IMG/VR virus record: IMGVR_UViG_3300026549_000064
Span: 21,016-85,015 of that record
Length of the DNA stretch: 64,000 nt
Source: a virus
Lineage: Duplodnaviria; Caudoviricetes
Direction: 5' to 3' (one strand)
A model generated the notes under the pieces. It was not told where the DNA came from, did not search any database, and was given only the letters and a program-made list of their open reading frames with translations. The translations under genes were made by a program, and so were the position numbers. Below are positions 27,401 through 46,959 of this stretch, piece after piece (the stretch's first letter is position 1; every line of letters starts with the position of its first letter).

Positions 27401-30400
27401 TACCTTTACCGAAAGTTTCGTACCATACGACAGCGTTTTGTGTACGATGCTGTATCTCTATTTGTCTTCTACTAGGATCAGGCCTCTCGAAATTCAGTAG
27501 AATAATTATAGCTGCATTTGTCGGACTCTGACAAGATTTAAGCTTACCAAGCGGATAAGTCATAAGACCATCGTCAAATTCCTTGCAGAGGTATTCTATC
27601 TGAACATCAGTATCACCTATCGATTTACCTTTACTGTGTGCAAAATCCCACAGTGCTTGCTTTCTAGACCAGTAAGTCCATTGAGCTAAACCGTAGCCAC
27701 GTTGACTATCGATAAATGCTTGCCTATTGGCATCTTTCTCTTTGGTGTACCGTAGACTTTCCTGGCGATTTGGCTGTAGGTCGCCTTGAACACGTACGCA
27801 CTCAATACCCGATTCCTGTTGAAGATTACCGAGCAATCCTGCAACCGCTGCTTCAGACCAGCCACGAGCTGTGAAGTATTTCCAAATCTTAGCTGCTAGT
27901 TTACGTCTGTCGGCATCGTTAACGATAGCTTTAGCAGTTGCCGCATATTTACGATAAGTTTCGTTAGGATCTTCTCTACCAGTTATTCTCTCATAAGTGT
28001 GAACAACTGTATCGGTGAAATTACCTTTGGTTGCACCCTTACCGGATTTCCGTGTGCCAGCTGCTCTTCCAAGAACTAAGTCGGCATGACTAGGATTATA
28101 AGTAGCACCGCCTTCAGCATTTTCTTCTTCAGCATTATCGTTTTCTTCATCTAGAGGTTTCGGGAAGAAACGTTTGTATAGATTAAGTAAAATTAACTCT
28201 GTAGGAGTTAACTCGACGTCGCCTAATCCATATTTATCTAATCCTTTCCGCAGAAGTGCTCTAGTTGCTTTTCTGCCATTAAGTATTTCATTTACAACAC
28301 CAGCTGTCTTCGATCCGTATACAGAACGTATAGCGTTAGTTACAAGTTTATTGAATCTTCCGCCACCTTTGTGAGGCAGTACAGTTTCCGTTCCGGCTTC
28401 GCCAATAGTGATATTGTCAAGGTTAGTTTCGGCATTAACTACTCCGCCTCTTCCTACAGAGAAAACACCGCCGTTGGCCATCTTCTTGTGATCGCTAGTA
28501 TCTGATTTCTCAGTATCTTCTATTCCCTTTTCTTTCTTGTAGACGAACCAGCTATTCATCGCGTCGCTTATAGGCAGATCATGTGCTTTAGCGTACTCGA
28601 AGATCTTGTCCATCTCTTTCTTATAGGCTTCTATTATATCAGGCGAAAGTTGTTTACGTGTTTCTTCGTTAGCGTATAATCTTCCAAAATATGAAAGAGC
28701 TTTTACTGAAGTTGACATATCTTTAGGATCTTCGTCATATTTAGATCCATTTTTCTTAGGCTTTGATCCGCCAGCACCGCCTTCAGCTTCTTTGGATGTA
28801 TTTTTAGTCTCTTCAGCTTCTTCTGGCTTGTAACCAGCAGTTCCTTTCTTACTATAAACAGCGTGCCCTTTACTAGCGCGATTGTTAACTTTGTCTTCTT
28901 TAGCGTGGAATTTGTTGTATTCTTCTATAATTTTATCCACAGGTACAGCAAATGACCCAGCGCCTAAGTTAAAATCACGAAGATATGTACGTGTAGCTTT
29001 AGCGCTCATCTTTTCAGATCTTGTTAAAAAGATAGTAAGCGCACCGAGTCGTTTAGCTTCTGGTATCTTTTCTGGATCAGGAAGTTTGTTTGTACTTTCA
29101 TTGGCTATACTGTTAACACAAGTGGTGTAGAACGAGAATATAGGGTTAACAACATAAGCAACCCATTCTTTAACGATGTTATACCAGGTTTCTAATATAT
29201 CTTTGAGCTCAAGTAAACGTTCCTGGTCTTTATCCATTTTTTCAACACGTTGCCCAAAACTGTTGTGATGAGCTGCGTGATCAAGACGGGTACTAAGAAA
29301 AGAAATAGTGTAATCGCCAGGCCTTCTAACGTTATAGATAGCTGGATTCAAATAAGCTAAACGATCGTTTGTATGTTCTAATAGATCATATATTTCGAGA
29401 GCGTAAGGATTTCCTGTTGTAAAGAATAGCATAACAGCTATTTTACTTATGTTATCCTCAAGCGAATCGCTGGTATGCTTTATCTGATATTCTAGTAAAC
29501 TTTCTTCTAGATTCTTATTGTTAAAACCATCGCCTGGTTTGAGGCCAAATGCATTACAGAAATTAGCCAGCCATATTCCATTTTCTTTATCTTGAAAATT
29601 TGCATTCAGATATGCATTTGGAATGTTTCCGAGCAGATTTGAATATGCTTTTAGTCTAGCTAGCATGAATTTCTTTGTTATACTTGTTCCACCCAGTATA
29701 ATAGATCTCCACTTTTCGGGTACTTTTTTGTCTTTATTATTAACACCTAAATATGCAGCTAGTGTATCAGAATCAGGCGCGTTGTTTAGTACAATAAGAT
29801 CTTGACTAAGTTGATCAGCTGCTTTGTAAACAGCATTGATTACGCCTTTATCAGTATCTTTTTCATCAGAATCTGCTAACGGATTTATCTTCGATTTAAG
29901 TATTTCTTTAGTTTGCTTATTTTCGGTTGCTATAGCGGCTGCTGCAGCAGTGCCGTTAGGCGTAGCTACTTTGAGATTGCCGGCTGCTAATTGCTTAGCA
30001 TATTCTTCCGATTCTTTAATGAAAAGATCCAGTCCTTTATCGCTTAGTTCGTATTTACTATATTTCTTAGAAACTTTAGATGCGAGCTCTTTGAAGGTTT
30101 TCATCGCATCTTCTCGATGCTCTTCTCTGATATCGTCAGGATTGAGTTTATTTAAGCCGATTAGATTTAGCAATCCATCATCTGCAACTCTTCCAGTATA
30201 CATGTTGATTGTGGACACGTACTGAGAAAAGATCGGTATGAATACTTTCTCTATCCAAAAATTAAGATACTTTTTAGCATATTCGTTGCGTTTATCAGCA
30301 GCCTCTTTGTTACCGCCGTGCTTTTCATCGTATTCTTTTTGACGGTTTTCTTGATTCCGTATTTCTGCTAGAAGAGCACCGGCGCCTCCTCCTATGCTGT

Positions 30401-33400
30401 AAGTCCCATGTTTGTTCGCATAATTATTTGCTTTAGTCAGCGCGGCATCCATTGAACGTTCGGTGGGCCTAAGTAGCCCCATGGCAACGCCGAATTCTGT
30501 GATAGCATACTCAGATAAGTGTTTGCCTTCTTCGATTTGTTTGAGACCTTCGTTCTCGAGATTTTCGATAGCTAATCTTCTTGCTTTTTGTTTTTCTCCA
30601 GTGCCGAGAACATCTGGAATATGGTAAAACTTAAATCTTACTTCTTCCCACATAACTTTTTCGGTAGAACCGCCATCGAACCATCCGGTAAGAAGGTGAC
30701 TTAACGAATCGGCCATGTCGGATATAGCTTTAGCAGCACCTTTAGCAAATTTCCTGAGGCCTCGTCCGAATGAAACTGCAGAGCCTTTGACATCTCCATC
30801 CCAGAGTTTCTTCCAAGAATCTCCAAATTCGTGGCCTACACCTCTAAAATCATCGGTGAGTTTTTCGCTAAGTGACTTAGTACGCTTATACGTAGTGGCA
30901 CGGTCTATCGCCGATTTATCTATAGCCATAAACCATTTAGCGTATCCATCTACTGTAGGTATAAGATCAAATAACTTAAACTTTTTCTTATATTTAGCTG
31001 CTCCGGATTTGAACTGTTCAATCGTCTGAGATCTTAAATCACCCGGAACATCGTTGATGTGAGGTTTATCTCCAACGTTGGTTTTTGTTATAACACGCAT
31101 TGCCTTTAAGTAGGACTTAAAGATCGGCATAAAGATCTTGCCCCACCAAGTTGCAACGTAATCTACCCTAGCATCTAGTGCTTCGGTTAGATCTCCGCCG
31201 AAATCTTTTATATGCTTTTGCATATCTTTTGTGGAGATTAGATCATCTGCTAATTCTTTTAGTTCGTCACGATCAAGATCAGGACGTGCCTGATCGATGA
31301 TAGGCATTGCTTTATCTTCGAGTGAAGTTATACGATCTAAGTCGTCTTCGGCTGCGAACATACCTCTCACGGCATGTGCTGCTAATAGAGTTGCAGCGAG
31401 CGGTGCTGCAGCGTGCGGTATTAACGCAGCTGCTCCGATTGCGGCGCCAGTTGCTGTTTTTGTTAATGCATCAGTCTGTTTCACGCCGCTCTCTCTTTTC
31501 TTAAAGTTATATGCAACTAATTTAGCTTCGCGCCATGCGTGATCATATGCGTTTTCATCTGTGTTGGCTAAATCACCAGCTGTATCTATAACGAATTTTG
31601 CGGCACCAGTCAAAGCTTGGGTGATGCCTTTAAGTCCAGCCCATAGGCCGTTGAGTACATTACCGTGCTTGATTTCATTCCAAGCATAACTAAAGGTTTT
31701 ACCAGAACGACCTAAATATTTGGATGCTTTGTTACCAAATTCTTTATTTTCTTTACGATGTCTTTCTTTGTCCTGGAAATCTTTGTGTGTTAATTTTTCA
31801 CGTAGCCATTTAGCAAAACATTTCTTATTCGGAGCAAGATCCTTTAACACGCCGGTTGCATATTTAGCCAGTTTTCTATCAAGGAAAGTTTTGACAGCTT
31901 CAATGTTGTTTTGATCAACATCATCAGCTTTAGGCTGTTTACTGCCGTCGTTCTTAGTTACTTGGCAGAGAACTGTTACGTAGTCTCTATATGCCGGAAG
32001 GAAACGTGCTTTGTACCATTTCTTAAGATATTCTGTCTTATTCTCTTCATCCGAATCGCCTTCGGTATCGTAAAGACCTCCGGCTTCAGCTCCGCCAATA
32101 AAATCTATCTTTTCACCGAATTGCTCAAGACGTTTGTCGTCGACACCTTCCTGTTGATTCTTCCACGCTTCGTAAGTATCTGTTTCGAGATCTTCAAATG
32201 CTTCCCAGTTTTTAACGGTTAAACCATAAGCTTTAGCTCTAGGTATACGGAGTAGTTTAGTAGCTGCGCTGTCGGTTGCCCAGTTATATACCTGGTAACC
32301 AATAGTACCTAGAGTAAGTGCCCAGCCTATAGGGCCGCCTAATATTCCAGCAGCTATTCTTCCGGTTAAACCGAGAAGTCCGCCGCCGAGTCTTAAAGCC
32401 ATTCCGGCTGTGCCTAGTAAGGCTTTGCCGCCAAGACCTAAGATAGATCCAGCGGCTCTGCCTGCTAAGCCCAAGCCTTTCATTCCCAGTCCGCCTACAG
32501 TACGTGCGGCGCCTAGTACTCCTCGGCCAGCTGCGTGTCTTAGACGCATGCGGGCTAAACGAGCTTTGGCTTTAGCTCTTCTAGCGGCTTTACTGTTCTT
32601 GACTCGTTCTCTTACGTTATTAGCTCTGTTTCTTATACCTTCCTTAACTGAACCAGCTGCTCCGCTGAGTTTATCACTGACTGCTCCACCGAGAGCTTGT
32701 CCGCCGAATATTGCGCCTAGAGTGCTCCAGAATCCACCACCTTCGCTATCACCGGCTGAGTTATTCTCATCGGCTGCTTCAGCAGCAGCTCCTGCTGCAC
32801 CGTTAGGCTCTCCATCTTCGGCCATCTTCTTTTTATCTTCTTCTTGCTTCTTCTTATTTGCTTCTCTTCTCTCTTTTACTTCTTTCTTATGCTCTTCTCT
32901 ACGTTTCTTATAGTCGTAATACGACCCGTCTCTTAGGCCATTGCCATCATTGTCGCCGTTAACTTTTCCAGCCGGTAACCGTTCATAGAGTAATCCATAA
33001 ATGTCTAACAATCTATCGCCAACTATTTCAGATAGATCTTTTCTGGATATGCCTATACCAGTAAATGCAGTGACTACTGATGTAAACGCTGAGGTGATGA
33101 AATTGCCTACGGCAGTTCCACCTTCACCTAGCAGTTTCAAACCGCCACTAAAGAGATCTACAGCTTTCCCAGCTGCAGTTTTAAGTAAACGCCCAGCGCC
33201 TTTTGCAAGTTTGATAGCACTCCTGCTTATCGCACCAAGTACTTTCATAGACGCGACGCCTACTTTACCAATTACTGAGGCTCCTCTAAATCTGGTTAAC
33301 CTATTACCATCTACGTCATACACGCCCGCTTCGAGATCGTCACTATCGATGATGACCTTGTAACCCGAGTCAGTATTTTCGTAGATCTCGTGTTCTATTA

Positions 33401-36400
33401 AGTATGCTGATGTAAGCGGCACCCATTTGCCGTTCTTCTTGTAAACATATTTTCTAGTTGATTTGTTATTCTCTAAGTCTTTACCAGCTATTACTCTCTT
33501 AAGATCTTTTGTGTTCTTATCAATAATGTAAACATCTATAAACGGATCTTTCTTTTCCCATAAAAACCTACTGTGTTCCTTAAGGAATTTTCCAGCATCA
33601 GCTATTTTACCAGGAATATTGAACGTAATGTTACTAATTATAGTGCCAGCTCTACGAGCTTTAGCAGCGAATCTGGACAAAAATGTAGACTTGATAGGCG
33701 TACCGTCAGCAAATATAAGTCCATCTCCTTCAGCGATATCTTCTGTAGAGATAACCATATTGCCGACAGCTTCTTTATCTTTATCCCAGAGATAGCAAGG
33801 GCCTTTGATATCGTAAACTGTAGGTACTTTGTTTCCTTTGACGTCTACTACTAAGCCGTCACGGAATGCTTCACCAGATACCAACGGTTTAGACTTATCT
33901 TTTTGACGAGAACTATAAACGTCGTCATAAGCTCTTGATAAACCAGAGTATGTCTGTGAAACTCCGCCGGTTACTTTGTCGGTTACAGTAGTCGCAAGAT
34001 TTTTAAGTTTCTCTATCGGTTTAATTTCTTTGATATAGTCTCTGACGCTATCGATGATATCGCCACCGATCTTCAGAGCGCTGTGCCCTGCACCGCCGAG
34101 CTTAGAACCTAGCCAACTAAGTTTCTCTCCATTTTTATCTAGTAATTCTTTTCCGGTAGCAGCTGTGTAGACAGCACTCATGCCTAGTTTGACAGCTTCA
34201 GACAATCCGAGAGCGGTTGCTTTAACGGCGGCTACGACAGGATCGATGAAGATAGTCTTAAATTTCTCAGGCAATACATCGTCAAGTGATATCTTGTCAA
34301 TGATTACCTTTCTATCTTTAACACTATCTTTAATTACACTAACATTCTTAGATATAGTTTCTAGTAATCCAGTTACTCTACCGCCATATTTAGAATCAGA
34401 GTGGTTGTTAACAGTAGTGTTGACTGCCGACGATCTTGACTCGTTAATGTTTGTTGTATTGTAGTATTTTTCAAGCTGCTTAGAAAAAGTATCGACAAAT
34501 GTCCGATTATTTTCTTTAAGAATATTAGAGACGATTGATTGAACGTTAGCTGAATCGAAAGCACTTTCCTGCCTAGCTCTATTGTTTTTGTCAGTAGCCG
34601 ATTTTTTATGCGCAACAGTATCAATTAGTCTGCTGATGCCGCTTTGGATATCGAGCAGAGTACGGTTTCTAGTCTGAGCAAGACGTACAAGATTACTAAC
34701 CAGTTTACGGTTATCGTAAGTCGTTATACGAGCATTTATAGTACCGCCTGCAGAAGAATTAGGCTCAGCTGTATTAGGGCTAAATGTAACCCCATCTGAA
34801 GACGATTCTTGTGCATTAGTATTTTTCGGTTTGGAATCTATGGAAGTATCTAGCGAAGATTGAGCTTTGCGTATAAGATCGATAGATTCTTGGCTTGCAC
34901 CTGCTTCGAAATCAGCGTGAACAGCATCGGCTGCAGCCTGATCGTTGCCAGAAGCTTTAGCGTTGAGCTCTTTTGCATAAGCTTCGCTGACTTTAATTGA
35001 ATCTAATTCATCGGGGTGGGCTTGGAAATATCTAAGCCATTTTCTTGCTGTGTTTGGTAATTGATTTAAGAAACCGATAAACGATACGTTGTCATCGAAT
35101 TTCTCAAGCAGTTTTTTCTTATTTTTTACAGACGCTAGCCATTTAAGAATATCTACGTCTCTGATATTCTTTTTATCACGCATAACTCCGTTTTCTTTAT
35201 CTTCAAGGAATACGCTGATATCGCCGAGCGAATCGTCAATACTTGAGAGAATACGGAGAAGGCTTTGACCTCCGAGGTTAATTATCTTATCGTTTGCTTT
35301 GTTAGCTAAGCTTTTAATCTTATCAAAACTACCGTCTGTTAGAGCAATGACCCAGTTGAAAAGAGGGTTTCTGTACATTGCCACTAGCTTAGGTCTAAAT
35401 TTAGGATCTTTAATAGCGTCTATTAGAGTTTTGCCTGGATGCTTTTCTAGGTAGTTATCAATGACCGTTTTGAAATTATTGTTTTCGTAATATGCGGTTT
35501 CTAGATCACGATCAAGTTTTTCTTGCTTTTTTAGAGTTTTCTCACGATCGTTAGATTTTTGTAATTCTTTAAGGCGGGCTCCTTCGGAAGCTAGATCTTC
35601 TTTAGTAGCGCGTAGATCTTTGATATCACGTGATCCACCGTAATTACGTTCCACCAAACGTAAAGCTTGGTTACGTTCAATATCCCAGCTTCCATAGGCG
35701 TTACGGTGTATGATACCCATTTTCTCTAATTGAGAAGCATTACCGTTTTTGATCTCGCCATAAATAACTTCTTCCAGACGGGAATTTGCTTCAGATCTAT
35801 ACTTCCAGATCTGTATCCACATTAAGTCAGCTGTTTTAGTGTTGAGTACATGTTCATACGGAGTACTATTGTCGTCATCAGGCCCTTTAGGTTTTTCTAG
35901 AACACGAATAAACCACTTTACAACAGGTAATACGTTTTCGGCAGCGATACTGGTAAATGCAGCCTGGAAGAGATCATTTTTCTGGAAATCATTCTTTCCA
36001 GCTTCAATGCTACTACGAATATCCCAGAGATCGTTTAGAACATCTTGCATGAGTTCTTCACGCTCACTGTCGATATCGTAATCGCCAACAGCGATGCCAG
36101 TTAAAACTTTAGTGATATCATCTGCGTGTTTCTGAAGTTCTCCGTTAATTTCTTGATACAGTGCATCGTTTCCGTTATCGAAAACGGAATTGATCAGCTT
36201 CTGCGTATCAAGAACTTTAACTTTCTTTTCGTACATCATCTGGCTGTCGCCGCCAGATATATCTCTGATCAGCTGTTGTCTATAATCTACTCCGGCAACT
36301 AGTTTGCCTTGTTTATAATCCCATTCAAGCTCTGTTGCATTTTTGTCACCAGTTGCCAGCATCTCGAGATACTTAGTTTGCGTCTTGAGATACGACGGGA

Positions 36401-37823
36401 TAATTTGTTCTATGGTTAGAGTGGTGCGATTGGTAAGTTTACCACCTTGATCTAGCGTATCGTAATCTACATTGTTAGTAACGGTATTCTGTTTATCAAG
36501 TATGCCTTCGGTCATGGTGCCGATGGTGCGCTGTAAATCTGGCGGTAAATTTTTGAGTAAGCCGCCTCTTGACATATAGTGCAGTACAAACGGCAAAGTG
36601 TTGCCACCCAGTTGGGTAGCATTTTCTATCATAAGCCGGGTTCTTTCATCTAGCCCGCCACTTACGCGTTCTATTAAACGTTTACCGAATTGTTTAGATG
36701 CTTTCTTGATACCCCAACCAGTTAGCATTCTTGGTATAGACCACCAGTTGAATTCCTGAGGTTTACCTTCGAAATCATTCTGCATTTCGAGGGCATCGCT
36801 CATCATATCCATCATCTGCTGGCCCATGCCCAGTTTATCTAGGAAAGGCTCAATATAATTTTCTTTTATGTTACCGGCCATTTTACCAAAGTAACCCGTG
36901 AGTTTTCCACCCATGGTACCCAGTAGGCCTTCTTTTATTTTTTTACTTATCAGTTCTGATGTAGTAATTTTGTCAGCTTCAGGAAGCGCTGTGTTCTTTA
37001 CAATAGCGTCTAATCTTTCCTGAAGCATCTTGGCAGTTAGCTTAAATGATTCTAGTGTATCTTCTGTGGCATACAGCTGCTTATATTTTAATTCCAGATC
37101 TTTCTTAAGATAAGCAGTGAATGTTCCTCTGATGAATGCTGTTTGGTAAGTAGCCTGATTACGAATGATGCTGAGTATACCAGCAGTTTCTCTATGATGT
37201 ATCTGACCTATACGTCTATCGAAGGTTTTCTCTAATACAGCTTGCTTTTTATCCTCGATACGTTGTTCCTGTTCTGCGCCAAAGATGCTAGCTAACGCAT
37301 TAGACTGGCTCTCATCGCGTATCTGATCTTTACTTTTTTCTTCGTAACCGCCTTCGTCAGGGTTATGAATTTTATCTATTAGAGAAACAATTTTCTTATC
37401 AAGATGAAAAGGCAGTCTTCCTTCAAGGCTAGTTGCTAATTTTCTAGCACTGCGCATGGTAGCGTTGTACGCAGGAACAATTTTGTCAATAGATTCACTG
37501 CGAAGTGTATCCATTTCAGATATAAGATCTTTGCCACCTTCGTAGAGGCTAGATACACTTGGCATACTCTTGTCGAGCTGTTCTCTTATACCGCTACTTG
37601 CGCCATCGTAGGCATTTGTACTAACGTTATCAAGATCTAGGCCGATATTGTGCAATCCTTGGGATATAGGATTTCTGTTTTTCTTGGAGACTTCCGGATT
37701 GTCTTCATAACCGAAGTCGCCACCCATGTCAAGATCTAACGCAGAGTCTAAGTTCTCATCATCAAAATCTTTATTTGCGTCTCTAGTGCTAGGATCTTTA
37801 TCCTTACTGTCAAACCAACTCAT
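24405..37823 (-). CDS. Giant tail/tape-measure-like protein with peptidoglycan hydrolases (phiKZ gp181-like, 4472 aa)
   Basis: Phage-tail-lysozyme domain (GLLGNLQQESG, GYGLAQWT, FERP; ~27405-27900) and M15/VanY D,D-peptidase (SAFRS...Q, PGTSRHETGIAVD; ~26670-27020); Gly-rich hydrophobic segments; position next to the RNAP subunit gene. Confidence 0.85.
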   Translation of the reverse strand: MSWFDSKDKDPSTRDANKDFDDENLDSALDLDMGGDFGYEDNPEVSKKNRNPISQGLHNIGLDLDNVSTNAYDGASSGIREQLDKSMPSVSSLYEGGKDLISEMDTLRSESIDKIVPAYNATMRSARKLATSLEGRLPFHLDKKIVSLIDKIHNPDEGGYEEKSKDQIRDESQSNALASIFGAEQEQRIEDKKQAVLEKTFDRRIGQIHHRETAGILSIIRNQATYQTAFIRGTFTAYLKKDLELKYKQLYATEDTLESFKLTAKMLQERLDAIVKNTALPEADKITTSELISKKIKEGLLGTMGGKLTGYFGKMAGNIKENYIEPFLDKLGMGQQMMDMMSDALEMQNDFEGKPQEFNWWSIPRMLTGWGIKKASKQFGKRLIERVSGGLDERTRLMIENATQLGGNTLPFVLHYMSRGGLLKNLPPDLQRTIGTMTEGILDKQNTVTNNVDYDTLDQGGKLTNRTTLTIEQIIPSYLKTQTKYLEMLATGDKNATELEWDYKQGKLVAGVDYRQQLIRDISGGDSQMMYEKKVKVLDTQKLINSVFDNGNDALYQEINGELQKHADDITKVLTGIAVGDYDIDSEREELMQDVLNDLWDIRSSIEAGKNDFQKNDLFQAAFTSIAAENVLPVVKWFIRVLEKPKGPDDDNSTPYEHVLNTKTADLMWIQIWKYRSEANSRLEEVIYGEIKNGNASQLEKMGIIHRNAYGSWDIERNQALRLVERNYGGSRDIKDLRATKEDLASEGARLKELQKSNDREKTLKKQEKLDRDLETAYYENNNFKTVIDNYLEKHPGKTLIDAIKDPKFRPKLVAMYRNPLFNWVIALTDGSFDKIKSLANKANDKIINLGGQSLLRILSSIDDSLGDISVFLEDKENGVMRDKKNIRDVDILKWLASVKNKKKLLEKFDDNVSFIGFLNQLPNTARKWLRYFQAHPDELDSIKVSEAYAKELNAKASGNDQAAADAVHADFEAGASQESIDLIRKAQSSLDTSIDSKPKNTNAQESSSDGVTFSPNTAEPNSSAGGTINARITTYDNRKLVSNLVRLAQTRNRTLLDIQSGISRLIDTVAHKKSATDKNNRARQESAFDSANVQSIVSNILKENNRTFVDTFSKQLEKYYNTTNINESRSSAVNTTVNNHSDSKYGGRVTGLLETISKNVSVIKDSVKDRKVIIDKISLDDVLPEKFKTIFIDPVVAAVKATALGLSEAVKLGMSAVYTAATGKELLDKNGEKLSWLGSKLGGAGHSALKIGGDIIDSVRDYIKEIKPIEKLKNLATTVTDKVTGGVSQTYSGLSRAYDDVYSSRQKDKSKPLVSGEAFRDGLVVDVKGNKVPTVYDIKGPCYLWDKDKEAVGNMVISTEDIAEGDGLIFADGTPIKSTFLSRFAAKARRAGTIISNITFNIPGKIADAGKFLKEHSRFLWEKKDPFIDVYIIDKNTKDLKRVIAGKDLENNKSTRKYVYKKNGKWVPLTSAYLIEHEIYENTDSGYKVIIDSDDLEAGVYDVDGNRLTRFRGASVIGKVGVASMKVLGAISRSAIKLAKGAGRLLKTAAGKAVDLFSGGLKLLGEGGTAVGNFITSAFTSVVTAFTGIGISRKDLSEIVGDRLLDIYGLLYERLPAGKVNGDNDGNGLRDGSYYDYKKRREEHKKEVKERREANKKKQEEDKKKMAEDGEPNGAAGAAAEAADENNSAGDSEGGGFWSTLGAIFGGQALGGAVSDKLSGAAGSVKEGIRNRANNVRERVKNSKAARRAKAKARLARMRLRHAAGRGVLGAARTVGGLGMKGLGLAGRAAGSILGLGGKALLGTAGMALRLGGGLLGLTGRIAAGILGGPIGWALTLGTIGYQVYNWATDSAATKLLRIPRAKAYGLTVKNWEAFEDLETDTYEAWKNQQEGVDDKRLEQFGEKIDFIGGAEAGGLYDTEGDSDEENKTEYLKKWYKARFLPAYRDYVTVLCQVTKNDGSKQPKADDVDQNNIEAVKTFLDRKLAKYATGVLKDLAPNKKCFAKWLREKLTHKDFQDKERHRKENKEFGNKASKYLGRSGKTFSYAWNEIKHGNVLNGLWAGLKGITQALTGAAKFVIDTAGDLANTDENAYDHAWREAKLVAYNFKKRESGVKQTDALTKTATGAAIGAAALIPHAAAPLAATLLAAHAVRGMFAAEDDLDRITSLEDKAMPIIDQARPDLDRDELKELADDLISTKDMQKHIKDFGGDLTEALDARVDYVATWWGKIFMPIFKSYLKAMRVITKTNVGDKPHINDVPGDLRSQTIEQFKSGAAKYKKKFKLFDLIPTVDGYAKWFMAIDKSAIDRATTYKRTKSLSEKLTDDFRGVGHEFGDSWKKLWDGDVKGSAVSFGRGLRKFAKGAAKAISDMADSLSHLLTGWFDGGSTEKVMWEEVRFKFYHIPDVLGTGEKQKARRLAIENLENEGLKQIEEGKHLSEYAITEFGVAMGLLRPTERSMDAALTKANNYANKHGTYSIGGGAGALLAEIRNQENRQKEYDEKHGGNKEAADKRNEYAKKYLNFWIEKVFIPIFSQYVSTINMYTGRVADDGLLNLIGLNKLNPDDIREEHREDAMKTFKELASKVSKKYSKYELSDKGLDLFIKESEEYAKQLAAGNLKVATPNGTAAAAAIATENKQTKEILKSKINPLADSDEKDTDKGVINAVYKAADQLSQDLIVLNNAPDSDTLAAYLGVNNKDKKVPEKWRSIILGGTSITKKFMLARLKAYSNLLGNIPNAYLNANFQDKENGIWLANFCNAFGLKPGDGFNNKNLEESLLEYQIKHTSDSLEDNISKIAVMLFFTTGNPYALEIYDLLEHTNDRLAYLNPAIYNVRRPGDYTISFLSTRLDHAAHHNSFGQRVEKMDKDQERLLELKDILETWYNIVKEWVAYVVNPIFSFYTTCVNSIANESTNKLPDPEKIPEAKRLGALTIFLTRSEKMSAKATRTYLRDFNLGAGSFAVPVDKIIEEYNKFHAKEDKVNNRASKGHAVYSKKGTAGYKPEEAEETKNTSKEAEGGAGGSKPKKNGSKYDEDPKDMSTSVKALSYFGRLYANEETRKQLSPDIIEAYKKEMDKIFEYAKAHDLPISDAMNSWFVYKKEKGIEDTEKSDTSDHKKMANGGVFSVGRGGVVNAETNLDNITIGEAGTETVLPHKGGGRFNKLVTNAIRSVYGSKTAGVVNEILNGRKATRALLRKGLDKYGLGDVELTPTELILLNLYKRFFPKPLDEENDNAEEENAEGGATYNPSHADLVLGRAAGTRKSGKGATKGNFTDTVVHTYERITGREDPNETYRKYAATAKAIVNDADRRKLAAKIWKYFTARGWSEAAVAGLLGNLQQESGIECVRVQGDLQPNRQESLRYTKEKDANRQAFIDSQRGYGLAQWTYWSRKQALWDFAHSKGKSIGDTDVQIEYLCKEFDDGLMTYPLGKLKSCQSPTNAAIIILLNFERPDPSRRQIEIQHRTQNAVVWYETFGKGKVNKVDTEAALAQNKEVGKNSVENEGAAGKESSNQLFSSDRSDSGIQSVAGAALDLTSGGTSSYSGHSSRNTVLDVHGQGILKPENLHLSSDEIPKDGLDALAKLRSLRTMKGASTSYGGGNWISVAHLNPELIKRLYLAGKLYENAKGKNAKQWTITSAFRSYADQAAIKRKYPNDAARPGTSRHETGIAVDLGDANFGGIKNRAYDRGTVVDELEPYLKALGVIRKYRPGKLNEAQHFELQPGKLPDISALMSESGAEKTVEEGKKEVKELPKTDPAAVKEAEQAQDKTDNKKDTSIDEVVQAKQASTASSNGSVSGVAQPSNEKPTSVAGAALGITSGNSLTAGSATASGTSVDKAIQVKQTDTASSNGSVSGVMQLKDLDVEKDAAKLSSKANEIRKIAEGKKEVKELPKTDPDALKEAEQAKDKTDNKKDTSADEVVQAKQTDTASSNGSVSGVMQPQNKEYTAEDQQNIENGGADSNAVTTSQAKDKTDNKKDTSADEVVQAKQTDTASSNGSVSGVMQLKDQKPTSVASAVPGITSGGFSSTTKLAAGSNTSADEVVQAKQTDTASSNGSVSGVMQPQNKEYTAEDQQNIEQVVSALEATVDELQLFRPYPQIKGEDCSVKIKSLSDELNPIYGARKPAEYKQNLKYSNKALETLDLCIKVLEKYPNHPATKNVLDTAKDTKELLAEWPQYIQEELDSSLAFEKAGAVTPEERTKIVLALNGGADSNAAATSQAKDKTNGHKKMANGGIFALQRGGVVDAETNLDNITIGEAGAETVLPHKGGGRFNKLVTNAIRSVYGSKIARVIGNILGRNGTTSGIVYPDSYRNETRKLLADRSAASTADTEAIVTTEQASRQLESATTNAPKITTNSVANGVSEINNGSANTLAALNYQSTILEAIKNSVTDICKSIKPTETKSGNETVSQPTVHNKTENLADVIVNAMKEGFAAMSEQLSQLLQNNNNAPAAQTSKNTETRRTITTSFPLTTAKRI
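25170..26620 (-). repeat. Mosaic intragenic repeats in the tail protein
   Basis: Near-identical DNA modules encoding TSADEVVQAKQTDTASSNGSVSGVMQ (about 5 copies), PQNKEYTAEDQQNIE (2), EGKKEVKELPKTDP (2), NGGADSNA (2). Confidence 0.9.
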
Positions 37824-37837
37824 AATGGAATACCCTC

Positions 37838-38662
37838 CTACTTGTTACTGCCGGTACTTACATCGAATGATGCGAATAAGAAATGGCACACTGTGTTCAA
37901 CGCAATTTCAGTAGTTTTGAATATGAGATCTACTGTTTCTTTGTCAGCGAAATTAACGTTGTATCGTTGCCATTGGTGAAGTATACTGTCGTCGCAACAG
38001 TATGGCGCATATATCTGCGCTAGACTCATTGACATATCTTGGAATAGAGGCTTGTAGATACGGCCTTTTGGATCAAGTTCATAACTGATGTCATCTAAAA
38101 ATAGTACATCAGTTGTTTTCCACTCATTCTCTGATATTTCTCTGGGATCTTTCCGAATAAAATCGATAGTCGCAATATTCTCTACTTGACTAAGTAGTAT
38201 ATTACGATAAGCCTCCATCAATCTATTCGTTTGGAGAGGAAAGATATTTACCGTTACATGAATTTTTTCAGTAGCTTTAACGCGGTTATTATTCATGCGA
38301 AGAATACGCAATATAGCAGGAAGTGATCCTGACAACGATGTATCCGGACTACGGTTGAACAGATCTTCACCGTATTTAGGATCAGTATACATTTGCTTAT
38401 AATCTTTTTCTTTGTATTTGAGTTTAGGAAAGGCAAATGTAAAACTGCGATTGGGCTTGAGCATGTATTGTTTTAGATTGGCAATTACATAAGGAAGTGC
38501 TTCCTTATCAGTAGCTAGTATAAGTCCAAGTCTGGTATCTTTAAGTAAAGGTAAATCTATATATACTTTCTGAACAGCATGGAATTTACTGTACATGATA
38601 GCTTCGTTAACTTTGTTGATGAGATCATCGTGTTTAGCAACAAAATCAGAAAATGCGCTCAT
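37838..38662 (-). CDS. Conserved jumbo-phage hypothetical protein (274 aa)
   Basis: VYIDLPLLKDTRLG motif; co-transcribed with the tail protein gene. Confidence 0.65.
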   Translation of the reverse strand: MSAFSDFVAKHDDLINKVNEAIMYSKFHAVQKVYIDLPLLKDTRLGLILATDKEALPYVIANLKQYMLKPNRSFTFAFPKLKYKEKDYKQMYTDPKYGEDLFNRSPDTSLSGSLPAILRILRMNNNRVKATEKIHVTVNIFPLQTNRLMEAYRNILLSQVENIATIDFIRKDPREISENEWKTTDVLFLDDISYELDPKGRIYKPLFQDMSMSLAQIYAPYCCDDSILHQWQRYNVNFADKETVDLIFKTTEIALNTVCHFLFASFDVSTGSNK

Positions 38663-38769: not shown

Positions 38770-40899
38770 ATGCTTATGGCTAAGTTAGCACCGTTTAACA
38801 TAACCATGATAGATCCAGACGAATACGTTCAGCGTAAGCAGTGTTTGCCCGTATCATCTAACGCAATGTATGAGTCGTCTACCGAAAGATTCCATCCAGA
38901 TGGACTGTATTCTGAAGTTATATTTGGCCAGTTAGGATCAAGAGAAAGATTGATACGTCGTGGATTTATGTATCTTAGGACTACTCTTGTTTCGCCACAT
39001 CTTTACCGGCAGATCATGACTCTCAAAGGGTTTTATAAAGATATTGCTGCTGGTAAGCAGTATGCTTACTTTGACCCTAAGTTAAAAGACTTCGTAAGAA
39101 CGTCCAGAGATGATCCTGATTCAGATACAGGATACCAATTCTTTGTATCTAAATTAGATAAGATAGAGTTTCAAAAAACTAATTCAGCGCAGCGTAATGA
39201 TAAAATTACCTTAATCAAAAAATATAAGGATCGTTTATTCATTACTAAATTTATTATTCTTCCAGCAGCTCTTCGTGACGTTAGAATAAACAACGGCAGA
39301 CCTGAATCAGAAAAAATTAACAAGTTATATCTTAATCTGTTAGCTCTTACTAAATCATTACCTGATTCTGGAGCAGATGATCCTATTTTTGATCCTATTC
39401 GGTTTCAGATGCAGAATAAGCTTCAAGAGATTTACGAATACATTCGTAACATGATAGATGAGAAGCATGGTTTCGCTCAGGGAAGATATGCTGCGAGAGA
39501 CATTGTTTACGGATCGCGTAACGTTATAACCTCACCGTTGGTAACTGAAACTAAATCTCCTACAGCACCTGACGTGTTTAGTATAGACGAGGCTCTTATT
39601 CCTTTGTTTGAAGGATTAAAGGCATTAGTTCCAGTAATAGTTAATGTGATGACCACTAAGCTTTTAGCTACTGTATTTAGTGGTGATCAGTCTCGTACAA
39701 TTCCTCTTATAAATGCTAAGACGCTTAGACAAGAATATGTTGAGGTTGACGATAAAACCATTGAGAGATTTACTACGCCAGATGGAATAAACGATATCAT
39801 TAATGATTTCCGTGATAATTCCATGCATTTTAAGCCGGTTACACTTAAACCAGCTAAGGCAGCTTTGGCTGATGGATATGCCGCTGATGAGTATTATCTC
39901 TTTATGATTTATGACGACGGTGATACTGTTTATCAGTTTAGAGACTTGGAAGAATTTAAGCAGGCTTACGCTAGAACAGATAGATATCGCGATGATAACC
40001 CGTATACACATGTGCTCGATAATTATCCGCCGGAAAATTATATAATTGAGGGTACTGGCGCTTTAAGAGCTCACGGCATGGACATCGATCCTCAGGATCT
40101 CGATGTTATCATGAAGCCTGATATGTATCAGCATTTTCTTGAAGTAGCTAAAGCACAAAATGTTACTCCTGATGAATTTGGCGATTATGAAATTCATGTA
40201 GATAATGTAGAAATTCACATGAAGAATAATTGTTATCAAATCAAGACTGATGCTGACTGGGAGAAACTTAAGAGCGAACAAGGTATACAGATAGGGCAGC
40301 ATTATTATATTAAGCCTGAAGTCATGTCAGCCAGATATAAAGCTATAGAAGCTAAAGGCGGTAGACTCAAGGATAAAAGAAAACTAGAGTTTTATAAGTC
40401 TATTATCTTTGATGAGTCTAAAGTTAGACCTATGACTTATATTGAGCTGATGTATATAGCTTGCTCGTCAGCGATTAAGGGTAAACACTTCACTGTAACA
40501 AGATATCCTGTATTGAATATGTACAACATTTATCCAGTTAAGGGGCATCTCATATCAACTGAGCCAAGTAGAGTAGTGAAATATGTATTTGCTCTTAGAC
40601 CTGAATTGAGTGTAACTTTAAGTTCGTATCCAATTATGGGAGCGGTATCTAAACAATCGTTGTCAGTTCATCCTGCTACGTTGGGCCATTTGGATGCCGA
40701 CCACGATGGCGATACCATGAGTTTACTTCCTATCTTGTCTGAAGATGCCAATAAAGAAGTGGCTGATTTCATGCAGTCAACTGCTTCTATACTGGATGAG
40801 AGTGGTAACTTAATTTGGGGATTGACAGCAGGTGGCCAGAGTGTGGTTGTTCCAGTAACTCTGTTCTTCTGTACTTATAGACCTATAGAACAAAAATAA
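38770..40899 (+). CDS. Virion RNA polymerase beta-prime-like subunit (phiKZ gp180-like) with an inserted nucleotidyltransferase-like domain
   Basis: HPDGLYSEVIFG, R.V.GSRNVIT, RYPV, and catalytic DADHDGD motifs; divergent from the gp181-like gene. Confidence 0.85.
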   Translation: MLMAKLAPFNITMIDPDEYVQRKQCLPVSSNAMYESSTERFHPDGLYSEVIFGQLGSRERLIRRGFMYLRTTLVSPHLYRQIMTLKGFYKDIAAGKQYAYFDPKLKDFVRTSRDDPDSDTGYQFFVSKLDKIEFQKTNSAQRNDKITLIKKYKDRLFITKFIILPAALRDVRINNGRPESEKINKLYLNLLALTKSLPDSGADDPIFDPIRFQMQNKLQEIYEYIRNMIDEKHGFAQGRYAARDIVYGSRNVITSPLVTETKSPTAPDVFSIDEALIPLFEGLKALVPVIVNVMTTKLLATVFSGDQSRTIPLINAKTLRQEYVEVDDKTIERFTTPDGINDIINDFRDNSMHFKPVTLKPAKAALADGYAADEYYLFMIYDDGDTVYQFRDLEEFKQAYARTDRYRDDNPYTHVLDNYPPENYIIEGTGALRAHGMDIDPQDLDVIMKPDMYQHFLEVAKAQNVTPDEFGDYEIHVDNVEIHMKNNCYQIKTDADWEKLKSEQGIQIGQHYYIKPEVMSARYKAIEAKGGRLKDKRKLEFYKSIIFDESKVRPMTYIELMYIACSSAIKGKHFTVTRYPVLNMYNIYPVKGHLISTEPSRVVKYVFALRPELSVTLSSYPIMGAVSKQSLSVHPATLGHLDADHDGDTMSLLPILSEDANKEVADFMQSTASILDESGNLIWGLTAGGQSVVVPVTLFFCTYRPIEQK
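39979..40407 (+). other. Pol-beta-superfamily nucleotidyltransferase-like domain inserted in the RNAP subunit
   Basis: YIIEGTGALRAHGMDIDPQDLDVIM fits hhhG[GS]xAxxxxG...DhDhh; C-terminal RLKD; boundaries approximate. Confidence 0.65.
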
Positions 40900-41803: not shown

Positions 41804-42058
41804 ATGAAAATACATATTAAATTTTCTAAAGATAACGATACTGATGAAAATGCTATTAGTTATTTTGAAATGATGACCGCAACAAAAGCTGGTACTTTAG
41901 GACTATTGCCAGTTGATGAAATTGTGGTAGATGCTAGCTCAGTACCAGTATCTTTTTATAAAGAGTGGTTTTGTTATAAAGTCAATAAGTATTCTAAACC
42001 CACTCTTCAGTTTAGTCCTAAACTCTATGCTAAATTTAATAAGAAACAAAAATCTTAA
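41804..42058 (+). CDS. Small hypothetical protein (84 aa)
   Basis: GGAG SD; 3' end overlaps the dam start. Confidence 0.6.
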   Translation: MKIHIKFSKDNDTDENAISYFEMMTATKAGTLGLLPVDEIVVDASSVPVSFYKEWFCYKVNKYSKPTLQFSPKLYAKFNKKQKS

Positions 42059-42872
42059 GCCATTTCTCAAATGGGTTGGTGGTAAAAGCCAGCTTTTGAA
42101 TAAGCTTTTACTGTTAGTTCCTCAAGAGTATAACACTTATTACGAGCCGTTCGTTGGCGGCGGAGCTATGCTGTTAGCTCTCCAACCTAAACAAGCCGTT
42201 ATAGGAGATATGAATTCGCAGCTTATCAATGCTTATTTACAGATAAGAGATAGGCCAGCTGATGTAATTGATTATATTCAGAAATTTGACTCTGAACCTT
42301 GTACTAAGGAGATCTTCTGTAGTAGAAGAGAACAGTTTAACGATAAAATTAGAGAAGATAAGCTTGATGTCGAGTCAGCTGCTTTAATGGTTTGGATAAA
42401 TAAGCATTGCTTTAATGGGTTGTATAGAGTTAATTCCCTAGGTATATTCAATGTGCCCTGGAATAATAAAACAACAGGTTCGTCTATTTCGATAGAGAAT
42501 CTTAAAGCGGTTTCTGATTATTTTAGTAAGAATAGAGTTACGATAAGAAATAGTGATTTTGAAGTAACCTGTCGTGATATTAAAAAAGGTGATTTTGTTT
42601 ATTTCGATTCGCCTTATGTACCAGTAAGCCAGACATCTAATTTTACTTCATATCAGTCTAAAGGTTTCACTGAATTCGATCATAAACGTTTAGCTGGGTT
42701 TGTTAAAGAATTAGATAAAGCTGGTGTTAAGTTTATGTTAAGCAACAATAACGTTCCAACTGTTAAAGAACTGTATAAAGATTTTCGTATCATTGAAACT
42801 AATGTATCGAGATCTATTAACTGTATTGGTAATAAACGTACCGGTGCTGAGGTAATTATACTGAATTATTAA
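42027..42872 (+). CDS. dam: DNA adenine methyltransferase, Dam (D12 class)
   Basis: KPFLKWVGGKSQL, YYEPFVGGGA, FNGLYRVN, YFDSPY, FMLSN motifs; start uncertain (no clear SD). Confidence 0.9.
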   Translation: MLNLIRNKNLKPFLKWVGGKSQLLNKLLLLVPQEYNTYYEPFVGGGAMLLALQPKQAVIGDMNSQLINAYLQIRDRPADVIDYIQKFDSEPCTKEIFCSRREQFNDKIREDKLDVESAALMVWINKHCFNGLYRVNSLGIFNVPWNNKTTGSSISIENLKAVSDYFSKNRVTIRNSDFEVTCRDIKKGDFVYFDSPYVPVSQTSNFTSYQSKGFTEFDHKRLAGFVKELDKAGVKFMLSNNNVPTVKELYKDFRIIETNVSRSINCIGNKRTGAEVIILNY

Positions 42873-44512: not shown

Positions 44513-46006
44513 TCAGCTCCTTAAATATCTTCCAACGAATGTTCGTAATTTTGCTTCAGCAGTAGATGTAGTATTCATTTCATTTTCCTGATAGTTGATC
44601 TGAGTTATAGCTAATGGCTGTACTGCTATAACTTTATCATCTAGCATAGGCGTAAGTTCGTTAAGCTCACGTTCATAGGACTGTCTTAATGGTAGCACTG
44701 GGTTAGTAGCTAATTGCCCTTTAAGCTCATTGACTCTGCGTCGAATAGCTAGCTGAATATCTCTTGACCTTGCATCGATTTGGACACCGGTAGAAGAGAT
44801 ATTACTTAGCACTTCGCTGCTTTCTATACCGTAAAGATATAGATTCTTACCAAAGAAAATTAAATACACAGCTAGTAGATAAGAGATGACCTGGTCATCG
44901 TGTTTACCGTTACTGTGATCTATACGTCCACCGCGAGTTGTTAGGTTAACAAATTCTGTGACAAGTGTTCTATCGTATACTCTAGATGCTGTAATTTCCA
45001 GAGCTTTGAACATAACTTGTTTATACAGAAGATTACGAGAAGTACCAGAAGCTACACCACCAGTTCTGTAACCGAATACGCCACGAATGTTAGCTGGTAT
45101 TTCAGTGTAGTTATAAATGTTAATGTCTTTATATTTGTCTTCAGTACGGTTTTGAATCACATCGTTATAGATGCGAGCGAATGGATTGATACTACGTTTT
45201 TGTAGTTCTTCGATAACGAAATCAGTAATAGCTATACCGGTATTTTGCCGTTCAGGTATAAACACTATGCCAGTATATTTAAGTAAAAAGTTTACAATGA
45301 ATCTAGCTATAGCCATAGTGTTGCTGTTGTTACAGCGGAATGTAGCTACAACTGATAGATCTTTTACAGAAACAACTGTAAAAGTAGTAAAGTCTTTACC
45401 AATGTTTTCCGAACTATCTGAACCCATTACCATTTTAGCTGATAGTATTTCAGAAGAGTTGATTTTCTCTTTAGGGATATACCAGCGTATTATGAAATCG
45501 TCTACTATTTCGCAGTATTCTGGTTCACGTTTAGAAGCTATGAGTTTGTTACGAATTTCTTCTGGAAGAATAGCGTTATCTGAAGAAGTCTGCCAGATAT
45601 TAAGGAAATCACGATTGATATCATCTTGAGATGCACCTGAACGAGATGCATTTTCTCTGAACCATTCGTCAGTTTTACCAAGCTGACGATAGGAGAATTC
45701 TAGATAAAGCATAGGCGCAGTTCTACTAGATGATTTACGTATCGTAGAAATAAGCTCGTTTCTATCCTTGAGATCGTAAAGCGCTTCAGTGAAAGGAAGA
45801 GCTGATCTTAGGAGGTTAAGGGCATATGCACCTTGTTTGGTTTCAGGGTTACCTGCAGTTGTAGTAAAGATAATAGGAGAGGGTAGTCCAGCTTTACGAG
45901 CGTTTTGTGAAGCTGCCAACATAGCGTTGACAGCTGTGGGTACGACTATCCAGTTATAGTTCATGAATGCTATTTCGTCAAAGTGTACTACAGCCATTGT
46001 ACAACC
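44513..46006 (-). CDS. terL: Terminase large subunit, exon 2
   Basis: Walker B VVHFDE, TTTAG motif III, nuclease GSDSS and GRIDH..GKHDDQV motifs. Confidence 0.9.
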   Translation of the reverse strand, partial: GCTMAVVHFDEIAFMNYNWIVVPTAVNAMLAASQNARKAGLPSPIIFTTTAGNPETKQGAYALNLLRSALPFTEALYDLKDRNELISTIRKSSSRTAPMLYLEFSYRQLGKTDEWFRENASRSGASQDDINRDFLNIWQTSSDNAILPEEIRNKLIASKREPEYCEIVDDFIIRWYIPKEKINSSEILSAKMVMGSDSSENIGKDFTTFTVVSVKDLSVVATFRCNNSNTMAIARFIVNFLLKYTGIVFIPERQNTGIAITDFVIEELQKRSINPFARIYNDVIQNRTEDKYKDINIYNYTEIPANIRGVFGYRTGGVASGTSRNLLYKQVMFKALEITASRVYDRTLVTEFVNLTTRGGRIDHSNGKHDDQVISYLLAVYLIFFGKNLYLYGIESSEVLSNISSTGVQIDARSRDIQLAIRRRVNELKGQLATNPVLPLRQSYERELNELTPMLDDKVIAVQPLAITQINYQENEMNTTSTAEAKLRTFVGRYLRS

Positions 46007-46308
46007 CGAATATGTTGCGGTGTAATCGTTTCCATTACACCTCTCTATGTCGCCATAGAAGTTCAGACTATATCACCAGCTCGCAAGTTATAGGTGCGAG
46101 TTGCTCACCATTTCGAGCTCACTTGAGCTCTACGCTACTCATTCCCGTCGGAACCACTTTCCGACTTGTTTTCGCTAGTCGTTAGGCTTTCTATATCACG
46201 CATTTTGCGTAAATAGTTAGCACGGTAGGTTATCTCAGAGAGACTTTCCCCGTTTAAGTGAGTTTTATTGTACTAGATCACTCTAGTAGGACGCAGTTAT
46301 GGCAGTTT
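46007..46308 (-). mobile_element. Group I intron (IA2-like, 302 nt, no homing endonuclease) in terL
   Basis: P1 GGACGU/GCGUCC with U-G wobble, P10 AUAACU/GGUUGU, P7 GACUA/UAGUC, P7.1 and P7.2 hairpins, terminal G; splicing restores LGR-GCTMAVVHFDE. Confidence 0.93.
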
Positions 46309-46959
46309 ACGTCCCAGCTTGTAAGCACCCACCTCATCATTGGCGGATGTAAACGTTTTATACGAGTTGTGTAGAGCTGCGTAGAATAAACCTTCCTTAC
46401 GTTCACCGTCAGAAGTTGAACGCGTTATCATCCATTTGGGCAGACCATCACGAAGAGCTTTAAGACGTGCAACGTTATCTTGTACCAGCGCTGAGTCCTT
46501 AGTGAACATGCCGATATCGAGATAAGAGAATGCTACGTACATGGCGTGATCTATGATGCACTGCATACCGATAGTTTTACCAGTCTGACGTGGCTGTACC
46601 AAACCAATATCCACATCGTTCATGAACGCCCAGGTTAAAGCTAAATTGCCACGGTTAAGTTCGAAAGGAGTTCCATTTTCTTGTCCAATGACAGGAACAC
46701 GAACTACTTCTCTTAAGAAATACCAAATATTTATCTTGCATTCCTGAGAGATACGAAGCATTTGCTCAGTAGTTAAATTAGGAGATCTAGGATCTACTCC
46801 AAGTAAAGTGTGATCGTATAAACTCAGAAAAAAATAATAATTACGTATACCCATACGTTTAAGCACTAAGGCTATACGTAAGAACGATTGATTCTTAGTG
46901 TTATAATCTATGTAAGGGTGTTTCTCTGCTATATCTTTCATATAGAGTATAGTATTCAT
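46309..46959 (-). CDS. terL: Terminase large subunit, exon 1
   Basis: phiKZ-type N-terminus (TKNQSFLR...MGIRN, ECKINIWYFLREV) and Walker A QPRQTGKT; spliced product is 714 aa. Confidence 0.9.

Follow-up and report, generated by a model that had tools for sequence, protein, structure and literature searches.

The virion RNA polymerases (vRNAPs) of phiKZ-like phages are responsible for the earliest transcription in the injected cell, at a stage when no phage protein has yet been synthesised. [quoted passage not shown] Vaccinia virus and Megavirus provide an analogy only, with a virion-packaged RNAP accompanied by a nucleotidyltransferase (NTase) of the Pol-beta type, the poly(A) polymerase (VP55, 3owg, and 4p37, respectively). 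Here we describe a Pol-beta-type NTase domain nested inside a vRNAP subunit, the 709-amino-acid (aa) orthologue of phiKZ gp180. It is encoded in a window of 64,000 nucleotides, the whole stretch analysed, which covers positions 21,016 to 85,015 of IMG/VR record IMGVR_UViG_3300026549_000064; all positions below are those of the window. The HD fusion differs from this insert in fold, chemistry and subunit, and it is terminal rather than nested, while the vaccinia and Megavirus poly(A) polymerases are proteins in their own right, far larger and equipped with RNA-binding domains. The source contig is an 85-kb IMG/VR contig with an estimated completeness of 32%, which corresponds to a genome of about 260 kb, and near-identical DNA was found in bovine gut metagenomes from multiple studies.

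Within the 709-aa subunit, the anchor peptides YQFRDLEEF (aa 388-396) and FDESKVRPMTYIEL (aa 547-560) flank 150 residues. The gene, the insertion and the folded domain are placed as follows:

38770..40899, + strand: gene for the vRNAP beta-prime N-terminal subunit (phiKZ gp180 orthologue), 709 aa, assigned from phrog_2986, GenBank matches and an AlphaFold2 (AF2) model
39958..40407, + strand: insertion of 150 aa (aa 397-546), at a site where insert-less homologues have 3-11 aa
39982-40407, + strand: Pol-beta-fold NTase domain within the insertion (aa 405-546), assigned from the AF2 fold and structural matches

To place the insertion among related polymerases, homologues of the subunit were collected from a search of 5.8 billion proteins and aligned as 118 clusters. 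The number of residues at the insertion site was 110-158 in 52 clusters and 3-11 in 66, and this bimodal length shows that the insertion is real and sharply bounded. The insert is in frame and at the identical site in about 50 homologue clusters, down to 37% identity, and it was present in none of the 313 GenBank phage records that match the subunit. Both junctions are covered, with no gaps, indels or joints, by contigs from independent public runs (contig X4 from a DNA run, spanning 39286-40808; contig X1 from an RNA library, spanning 39295-40899), which rules out an assembly chimera. The RNA-library contigs X1 and X17 hold the polymerase gene; their runs also contain contigs of 26-45 kb, so DNA carry-over is possible, and they were not counted as evidence of expression. 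The GC content of the insert (0.376) equals that of the remainder of the subunit gene (0.377). An intein was considered and rejected, since the insert begins with K397 and ends with I546 followed by F547, which are not intein-type junction residues, no Hint match was obtained, and the fold is that of an NTase. The initial annotation of this DNA had placed about 140 aa between two segments adjacent in homologues, at 39979-40407, and had seen no intein motifs; the 118-cluster alignment supports the gap (150 residues), the earlier coordinates nearly coincide with the folded core, and the lack of intein features held. We therefore treat the NTase-fold insert as real, with little room for doubt.

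To obtain the fold of the insert, it was modelled alone by AF2 from an alignment of 38 homologues, with a predicted local distance difference test score (pLDDT) of 95.8. The model contains a Pol-beta core made up of a strand (424-427), the G428-T429 turn, a helix (429-434) and a second strand (444-448). A Foldseek search against the PDB returned TM1012 first (E 3e-4); below it came MenT1, the poly(A) polymerases of giant viruses and poxviruses, LnuA and ANT(2'')-Ia. The VIA all-against-all structural search gave Z scores of 10.1 for TM1012, 9.8 for LnuA, 9.7 for MenT1 and 9.6 for ANT(2''), with further matches at 8.7, 8.0 (JHP933) and 7.8 (MenT3/TglT), each covering 127-137 of 155 residues, and the remaining matches were essentially all Pol-beta-type enzymes. 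The structural matches include the tRNA 3'-end NTases MenT1, MenT3 and MenT4, and the catalytic domains of poxvirus and giant-virus poly(A) polymerases, which score Z 6.2 and recur in the viral structure library. In a language-model look-up, the nearest clusters were ones labelled "putative nucleotidyltransferase" or containing ANT(2''); a cluster with PF10706, ranked 18th, is a lead only. On the predicted model, the insert is a compact domain (about 145 aa) of the Pol-beta NTase superfamily. That it might not adopt an NTase fold had been allowed for in the initial annotation, and the top Foldseek and VIA matches were all Pol-beta NTases.

The two-lobed minimal NTase fold is common to the insert and TM1012 (2ewr), LnuA (4wh5), MenT1 (8an4), ANT(2'')-Ia (4xje), JHP933 (4ok0) and MenT3/TglT (6j7n). 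These compact enzymes share the hG[ST] and DxD motifs with it, and they align over 127-137 residues with Z 7.8-10.1 at an identity of just 8-14%. The charged residues of the C-terminal lobe resemble motifs III and IV of the DUF1814 toxins (PMC7450476). Unlike the MenT toxins, the insert is nested in a polymerase and has no adjacent antitoxin gene, the neighbours of the polymerase gene being a 274-aa phrog_3328 protein and small open reading frames (ORFs) without matches; unlike LnuA and ANT(2'')-Ia, it is not in a resistance-gene context. Searches by sequence against solved structures, made with the single insert, the whole protein and an insert-only profile, did not find an NTase; the only proteins they returned, TNF ligand 18 and ribosomal protein L6, were dismissed as chance. 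Pfam gave no NTase-family match for the insert and only a sub-threshold DUF7277 hit (17 bits against a cut-off of 27, in six of nine inserts, not in RSF1 or KTN4), a weak lead. The DUF1814/AbiEii/MenT models were unmatched by the subunit at E up to 10 and by its homologues at E up to 0.1-1, and the family models of LnuA and ANT(2'')-Ia (e.g. PF10706) had no Pfam match to the insert-bearing subunit.

The catalytic motifs were then located in the insert, and their conservation was counted over 53 polymerase-embedded inserts:

40051..40056, + strand: Motif I, G428-T429, the hG[ST] turn after strand 1 (G in 51/53, S/T in 48/53)
40096..40104, + strand: Motif II, D443-L-D445(-V), the metal-binding pair on strand 2 (D443 in 45/53, D445 in 46/53)
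40210..40218, + strand: Motif III, E481-I-H483, on the following strand of the hairpin, with the putative third metal ligand (E/D in 38/53, H/Y in 44/53)
40363..40383, + strand: Motif IV, R532-L-K534-D535-x-x-K538, in the C-terminal helical lobe (R532 in 48, K534 in 43, D535 in 48 and K538 in 44 of 53)

All four motifs are present in the insert of this phage. The Pol-beta signature proposed at the outset could be located as G428-T429-G, D443-L-D445 and R532-L-K-D535, and for a third acidic residue, which the initial annotation had thought might be lacking, E481 is a candidate, in a column that is E or D in 38 of the 53 inserts. This residue lies on a predicted strand (480-484), 36 residues past D445. 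Two alignments differ over it, with either E481 or H483 made equivalent to the acidic residue of more distant inserts.

A tree was built from polymerase columns only, with the insert left out, and the distribution of the domain was read against it. All 52 carrier clusters fall on one side of a single branch (support 98), and one gain is enough to account for the insert, with no loss of the whole domain in any lineage among these clusters. Both acids of the DxD pair are kept in 42 of the 52 carriers. A domain common and inactive across gp180 homologues, the other outcome that had been envisaged, was not what we found: the insert is confined to one clade, occurs in 0/313 of the GenBank records, and has an intact DxD pair in most carriers. 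The 27 members of two of the subclades, this phage included, have G-[ST] and both aspartates invariant at about 45-50% sequence divergence, and Motifs I-IV as a whole vary little or not at all among them. Against an 80%-identical relative, the insert has a ratio of nonsynonymous to synonymous substitution rates (dN/dS) of 0.116, compared with 0.079 in the remainder of the gene; both values are rough because dS is near saturation. Purifying selection is about as strong on the insert as on the polymerase core.

To find relatives of the domain outside polymerases, an exhaustive HMMER search of 1.8 billion representatives was performed, and it returned only embedded copies, the free-standing protein P0124 and chance matches. 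P0124 is a protein of 145 aa with 27% identity to the insert, encoded on a 1.9-kb contig, and in an insert-only tree it falls inside the diversity of the embedded inserts, on a long branch (Shimodaira-Hasegawa-like approximate likelihood ratio test, SH-aLRT, 91). A word-based search for free-standing relatives gave none with the single sequence and P0124 only with the profile. Two candidates were rejected: P0122, a 5532-aa HMMER match, is a cadherin-repeat protein with a score inflated by its repeats, and tblastn of the insert against GenBank phages gave only matches at E 0.9 in Dickeya phages, on the opposite strand of an annotated gene, which are chance. The giant ORF next to the polymerase gene has no similarity to the insert.

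A search of viral predicted structures (BFVD) had as its top matches small uncharacterised proteins of RP12, PhiEaH1, EL, RSF1 and 201phi2-1 (E 1e-4 to 1e-3, template modelling score up to 0.68). EL gp120, EL gp121, RSF1 ORF104 and 201phi2-1 gp304 are members of phrog_12854. When a profile of nine inserts was compared with a profile of these four proteins by hhalign, the probability was 94.6% (E 7e-8, 109 columns), with the order of motifs shared: a G-rich turn, DxD, His and R-x-[KQ]-D. H483 aligns with the invariant His of phrog_12854, and Motif IV is co-linear with its R-x-Q-D-x-x-D-I-x-x-L. A direct hidden Markov model scan with the insert did not match phrog_12854, and neither the phiKZ-type record nor the contig that contains the window (85 kb, 32% complete) yielded a phrog_12854 gene. 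The insert is thus probably a remote homologue of phrog_12854 and not a member. The two are alike in fold, size (125-164 aa for phrog_12854), motif order and broad phage group, and they differ in that the phrog_12854 genes are free-standing, two beside an NAD-dependent DNA ligase. EL gp120 and gp121 (L019:6819-7765) and RSF1 ORF104 (L024:4779-5156) lie directly beside this ligase gene, and the EL genes are also near genes for RNase H, a DHH phosphoesterase and an RNA ligase.

The subunit that carries the insert was assigned by several comparisons. In PHROG, the 709-aa ORF matched phrog_2986 (annotated "RNA polymerase beta subunit") with E 1e-132, the match being split into two segments with the insert skipped between them, while the paralogous phrog_2987 was much weaker (E 1e-7). 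Its top matches among GenBank phages were gp180 orthologues of phiKZ-like phages, Noxifer and RSF1, at 31-33% identity. One of these, KTN4_220 of KTN4 (phiKZ species), is annotated as "beta/beta-prime-like virion-associated protein" and adjoins a giant structural lysin gene. The PHROG scores, the gp180 matches and the lysin synteny together indicate that the ORF encodes the virion, not the non-virion, RNAP paralogue. The full-length AF2 model of the subunit (pLDDT 87) matched the AR9 beta-prime N subunit (7s01_d) with Z 19 and bacterial beta-prime with Z of about 15.5. The family profile, the DxDGD loop and the beta-prime N fold of gp180-type proteins are all present in it, and the gene's C-terminal portion holds the following:

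40408..40896, + strand: return to the double-psi beta-barrel, which contains the catalytic loop DADHDGD
40693-40713, + strand: catalytic loop DADHDGD (aa 642-648), which the profile aligns to the NADFDGD region of bacterial beta-prime

KTN4_220, standing for phiKZ gp180, resembles the subunit in sequence (33% identity), PHROG, catalytic loop and gp181-like lysin neighbour, and it differs in its length of about 550 aa and in a short loop at the NTase site. The subunit is thus longer than gp180, as the initial annotation had said, but the figure of about 500 aa that it gave for gp180 was too low.

The position of the insert in the enzyme was examined through the segments on either side of it. 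The conserved "RNVIT" strand (to residue 254) and the DFDGD-loop segment both align to bacterial and plastid beta-prime, and between them lie about 90 residues in bacteria versus about 340 profile positions here. Part of this extra length is a module that precedes the insert:

39664..39957, + strand: alpha+beta module of aa 299-396, specific to vRNAPs and located where bacteria have the dock, with the insertion at its C-terminal end, assigned from the secondary structure of the model and the bracketing alignments

The bacterial helical bundle at the equivalent position of beta-prime is, we take it, the dock. The bacterial dock lines the RNA exit channel. The insert sits in a surface loop; in the full-length model, the NTase directly follows the aa 299-396 module. 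From this correspondence, we infer that the NTase would lie near the RNA exit in the assembled phage enzyme. The vRNAPs of jumbo phages have been reported to have their own, longer alpha+beta insert of beta-prime at the dock position (Iyer et al. 2021, PMC7824862).

Given that the fold, all motifs and purifying selection are kept here while motifs decay in another subclade, the insert is probably a catalytically active transferase of nucleoside monophosphates (NMPs) in this phage, as judged from sequence and model. In such an enzyme, the triphosphate of a nucleoside triphosphate would be bound by G428-T429 and the metal ions by D443, D445 and E481 (or H483), while R532, K534 and D535 would close the pocket from the helical lobe, and an NMP would be moved onto a hydroxyl group of an acceptor. 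The acceptor could be the 3'-OH of RNA, either of early transcripts after release or of another RNA handed over by the polymerase. Since the insert is part of the injected polymerase, it would act at the polymerase in the first minutes of infection. We infer that the RNA 3'-OH is the single likeliest acceptor, though with less than even confidence; in favour of an RNA acceptor, with the same reserve, are the location of the domain, its kinship in fold to viral poly(A) polymerases and to NTases that act on tRNA 3' ends, and the HD fusion as a precedent. Taken together, the explanation that we tentatively prefer is that a Pol-beta NTase was captured once by the vRNAP and is active there, with the RNA 3'-OH as its likeliest acceptor. 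A more specific version, in which a second working site beside the RNA exit modifies the polymerase's own early transcripts (e.g. with non-templated 3' nucleotides) or makes primers or nucleotides for initiation, is doubtful.

Several observations weigh against this preferred explanation, some against catalysis and some against an RNA acceptor. The DxD pair was lost at least 3-5 times (10 of the 52 carriers), all inside one 23-member subclade, with the domain retained, so catalysis is dispensable in that subclade. In four relatives that are intact in other respects, V, T or L stands in place of E481. The insert is acidic across the family (median net charge -7, isoelectric point 5.0), while the rest of the subunit is neutral (isoelectric point 7.2); such an acidic insert does not favour direct RNA binding. 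This acidity and the repeated loss of the DxD pair temper the functions proposed in the initial annotation (tailing or capping of transcripts, NMPylation of host proteins, signalling nucleotides). For comparison, the MenT toxins were reported with an electropositive groove (PMC7450476). The insert is without an RNA-binding extension, and its size is closer to the small-molecule NTases LnuA and ANT(2'') and to TM1012 than to RNA-acting NTases. Because the 5' end of a nascent RNA is the first to emerge from the exit channel, tailing of the 3' end would require that the RNA be released or handed over. P0124, finally, shows that the domain is able to exist on its own.

Some of these points lead to a first alternative, namely a catalytically silent module: the vRNAP would retain the NTase fold as a scaffold, or as a regulatory lobe that binds nucleotides, with a role in assembly, head packaging, ejection or the binding of a partner protein, and with motifs that serve nucleotide binding or fold stability and not turnover. 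The repeated loss of DxD with the domain never lost suggests a structurally entrenched module; G436, Y523, R532 and D535, each conserved in 48-50 of the 53 inserts, are as conserved as the metal ligands; the candidate third ligand is not strictly conserved; and the acidic surface is retained alike in "live" inserts and in "dead" ones that have lost DxD. We consider this alternative somewhat unlikely, because G-[ST] and both aspartates are kept without exception in the 27 members despite their divergence, dN/dS of the insert is as low as that of the polymerase core, and the decay seen in the other subclade indicates that the motifs erode when they are not needed.

A second alternative is that the insert is an active NTase that acts on a host protein (NMPylation, which has been proposed for minimal NTases of polyvalent proteins delivered by virions) or on a cationic small molecule (as LnuA and ANT(2'') do), and that its fusion to the polymerase ensures delivery together with the DNA. 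The acidic surface agrees with it, as do the size and shape shared with LnuA, ANT(2'') and TM1012 and the free-standing relatives (P0124, phrog_12854). There is also a precedent, since Pol-beta NTases were listed among the enzymatic domains of proteins delivered with mobile-element DNA, with protein substrates predicted (Iyer et al. 2017, PMC5512222). However, the domain occupies a loop inside an essential enzyme and is not terminal, the 201phi2-1 record carries no virion-protein flag for the free-standing gp304, and no candidate target is known, which together make this alternative unlikely.

It is highly improbable that the insert is no real part of the mature enzyme, whether as a chimera of the assembly, as an intein, or as an intron or mobile element that lies in frame and is lost before the polymerase acts, for although introns and inteins are frequent in jumbo-phage RNAP genes and the insert-less relative P0065 (1028 aa) has a LAGLIDADG domain, this reading was rejected on the DNA and RNA-library contigs over both junctions with no joined form seen, the homologues that share the site, the NTase fold with no Hint or endonuclease match, the junction residues and the GC content.

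In full-text searches of the literature, no paper was found that describes an NTase within a vRNAP subunit, in agreement with the initial annotation, and the comparative papers on jumbo-phage RNAPs and on NTase domains (PMC7824862, PMC5512222) do not mention the combination. The parts are of known kinds, and the combination of NTase and vRNAP is new. The insert is widespread in metagenomes (about 50 clusters) and absent from the cultured phages of the GenBank records; its carriers are a clade of uncultivated cattle-gut jumbo phages. A second catalytic domain in the catalytic subunit, if true, would give a handle on how early transcripts are made, protected and handed over to the ribosome. The NTase domain is small and expressible alone, with D443 and D445 as residues for knock-out and with natural "dead" variants in sister lineages. 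EL gp120 and gp121, RSF1 ORF104 and 201phi2-1 gp304 now have an assigned fold and family relationship and are open to laboratory study. If the site does modify transcripts, this would be the first cell-type (beta/beta-prime) RNAP with a built-in RNA-modifying enzyme, and would parallel, in a phage, the self-contained machines for transcription that poxviruses package; if it is inactive, it would still be a clear case of a once-captured domain entrenched in an essential enzyme.

The surroundings of the polymerase gene were also compared among relatives. Beside it, a 4472-aa ORF (24405-37823, - strand) looks like an enlarged form of the phiKZ gp181 lysin/tape-measure-like protein; its counterparts in relatives have 3079-4751 aa with lysozyme, peptidase M23 or VgrG3-like C-terminal domains, and the synteny is conserved. 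Between this giant ORF and the polymerase gene lies the gene of the 274-aa phrog_3328 protein (37838-38662, - strand). All seven relatives that were examined have a gene of similar size (272-298 aa) there, and KTN4 has none. This phage and six relatives share the order of a giant ORF on the opposite strand, a gene of about 280 aa and the polymerase gene. Downstream of the polymerase gene, a DNA methyltransferase gene (41931-42872, + strand; phrog_56, E 1e-74) may be a recent acquisition, since relatives carry different genes at its place.

Other signs of inserted elements were seen in the window and in related sequences. A region at 44513-46959 (- strand), about 300 bases from a 494-aa ORF without a PHROG match, fits an intron-split terminase. 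A 993-aa NrdD-like anaerobic ribonucleotide reductase (7598-10579, - strand) matches PHROG at 15-462 and 666-957, and the unmatched gap of about 200 aa fits an intein. The insert-less gp180 homologues P0063, P0064 and P0065 (807, 959 and 1028 aa) are much longer than their tree neighbours, and P0065 has LAGLIDADG_3 (PF14528), which suggests intein or endonuclease insertions elsewhere in the gene of these three. In a relative's 252-kb contig, a gene for an IS605 OrfB/Cas12f-like TnpB of 404 aa (L009:19676-20890, + strand) lies among the structural genes downstream of the polymerase gene.

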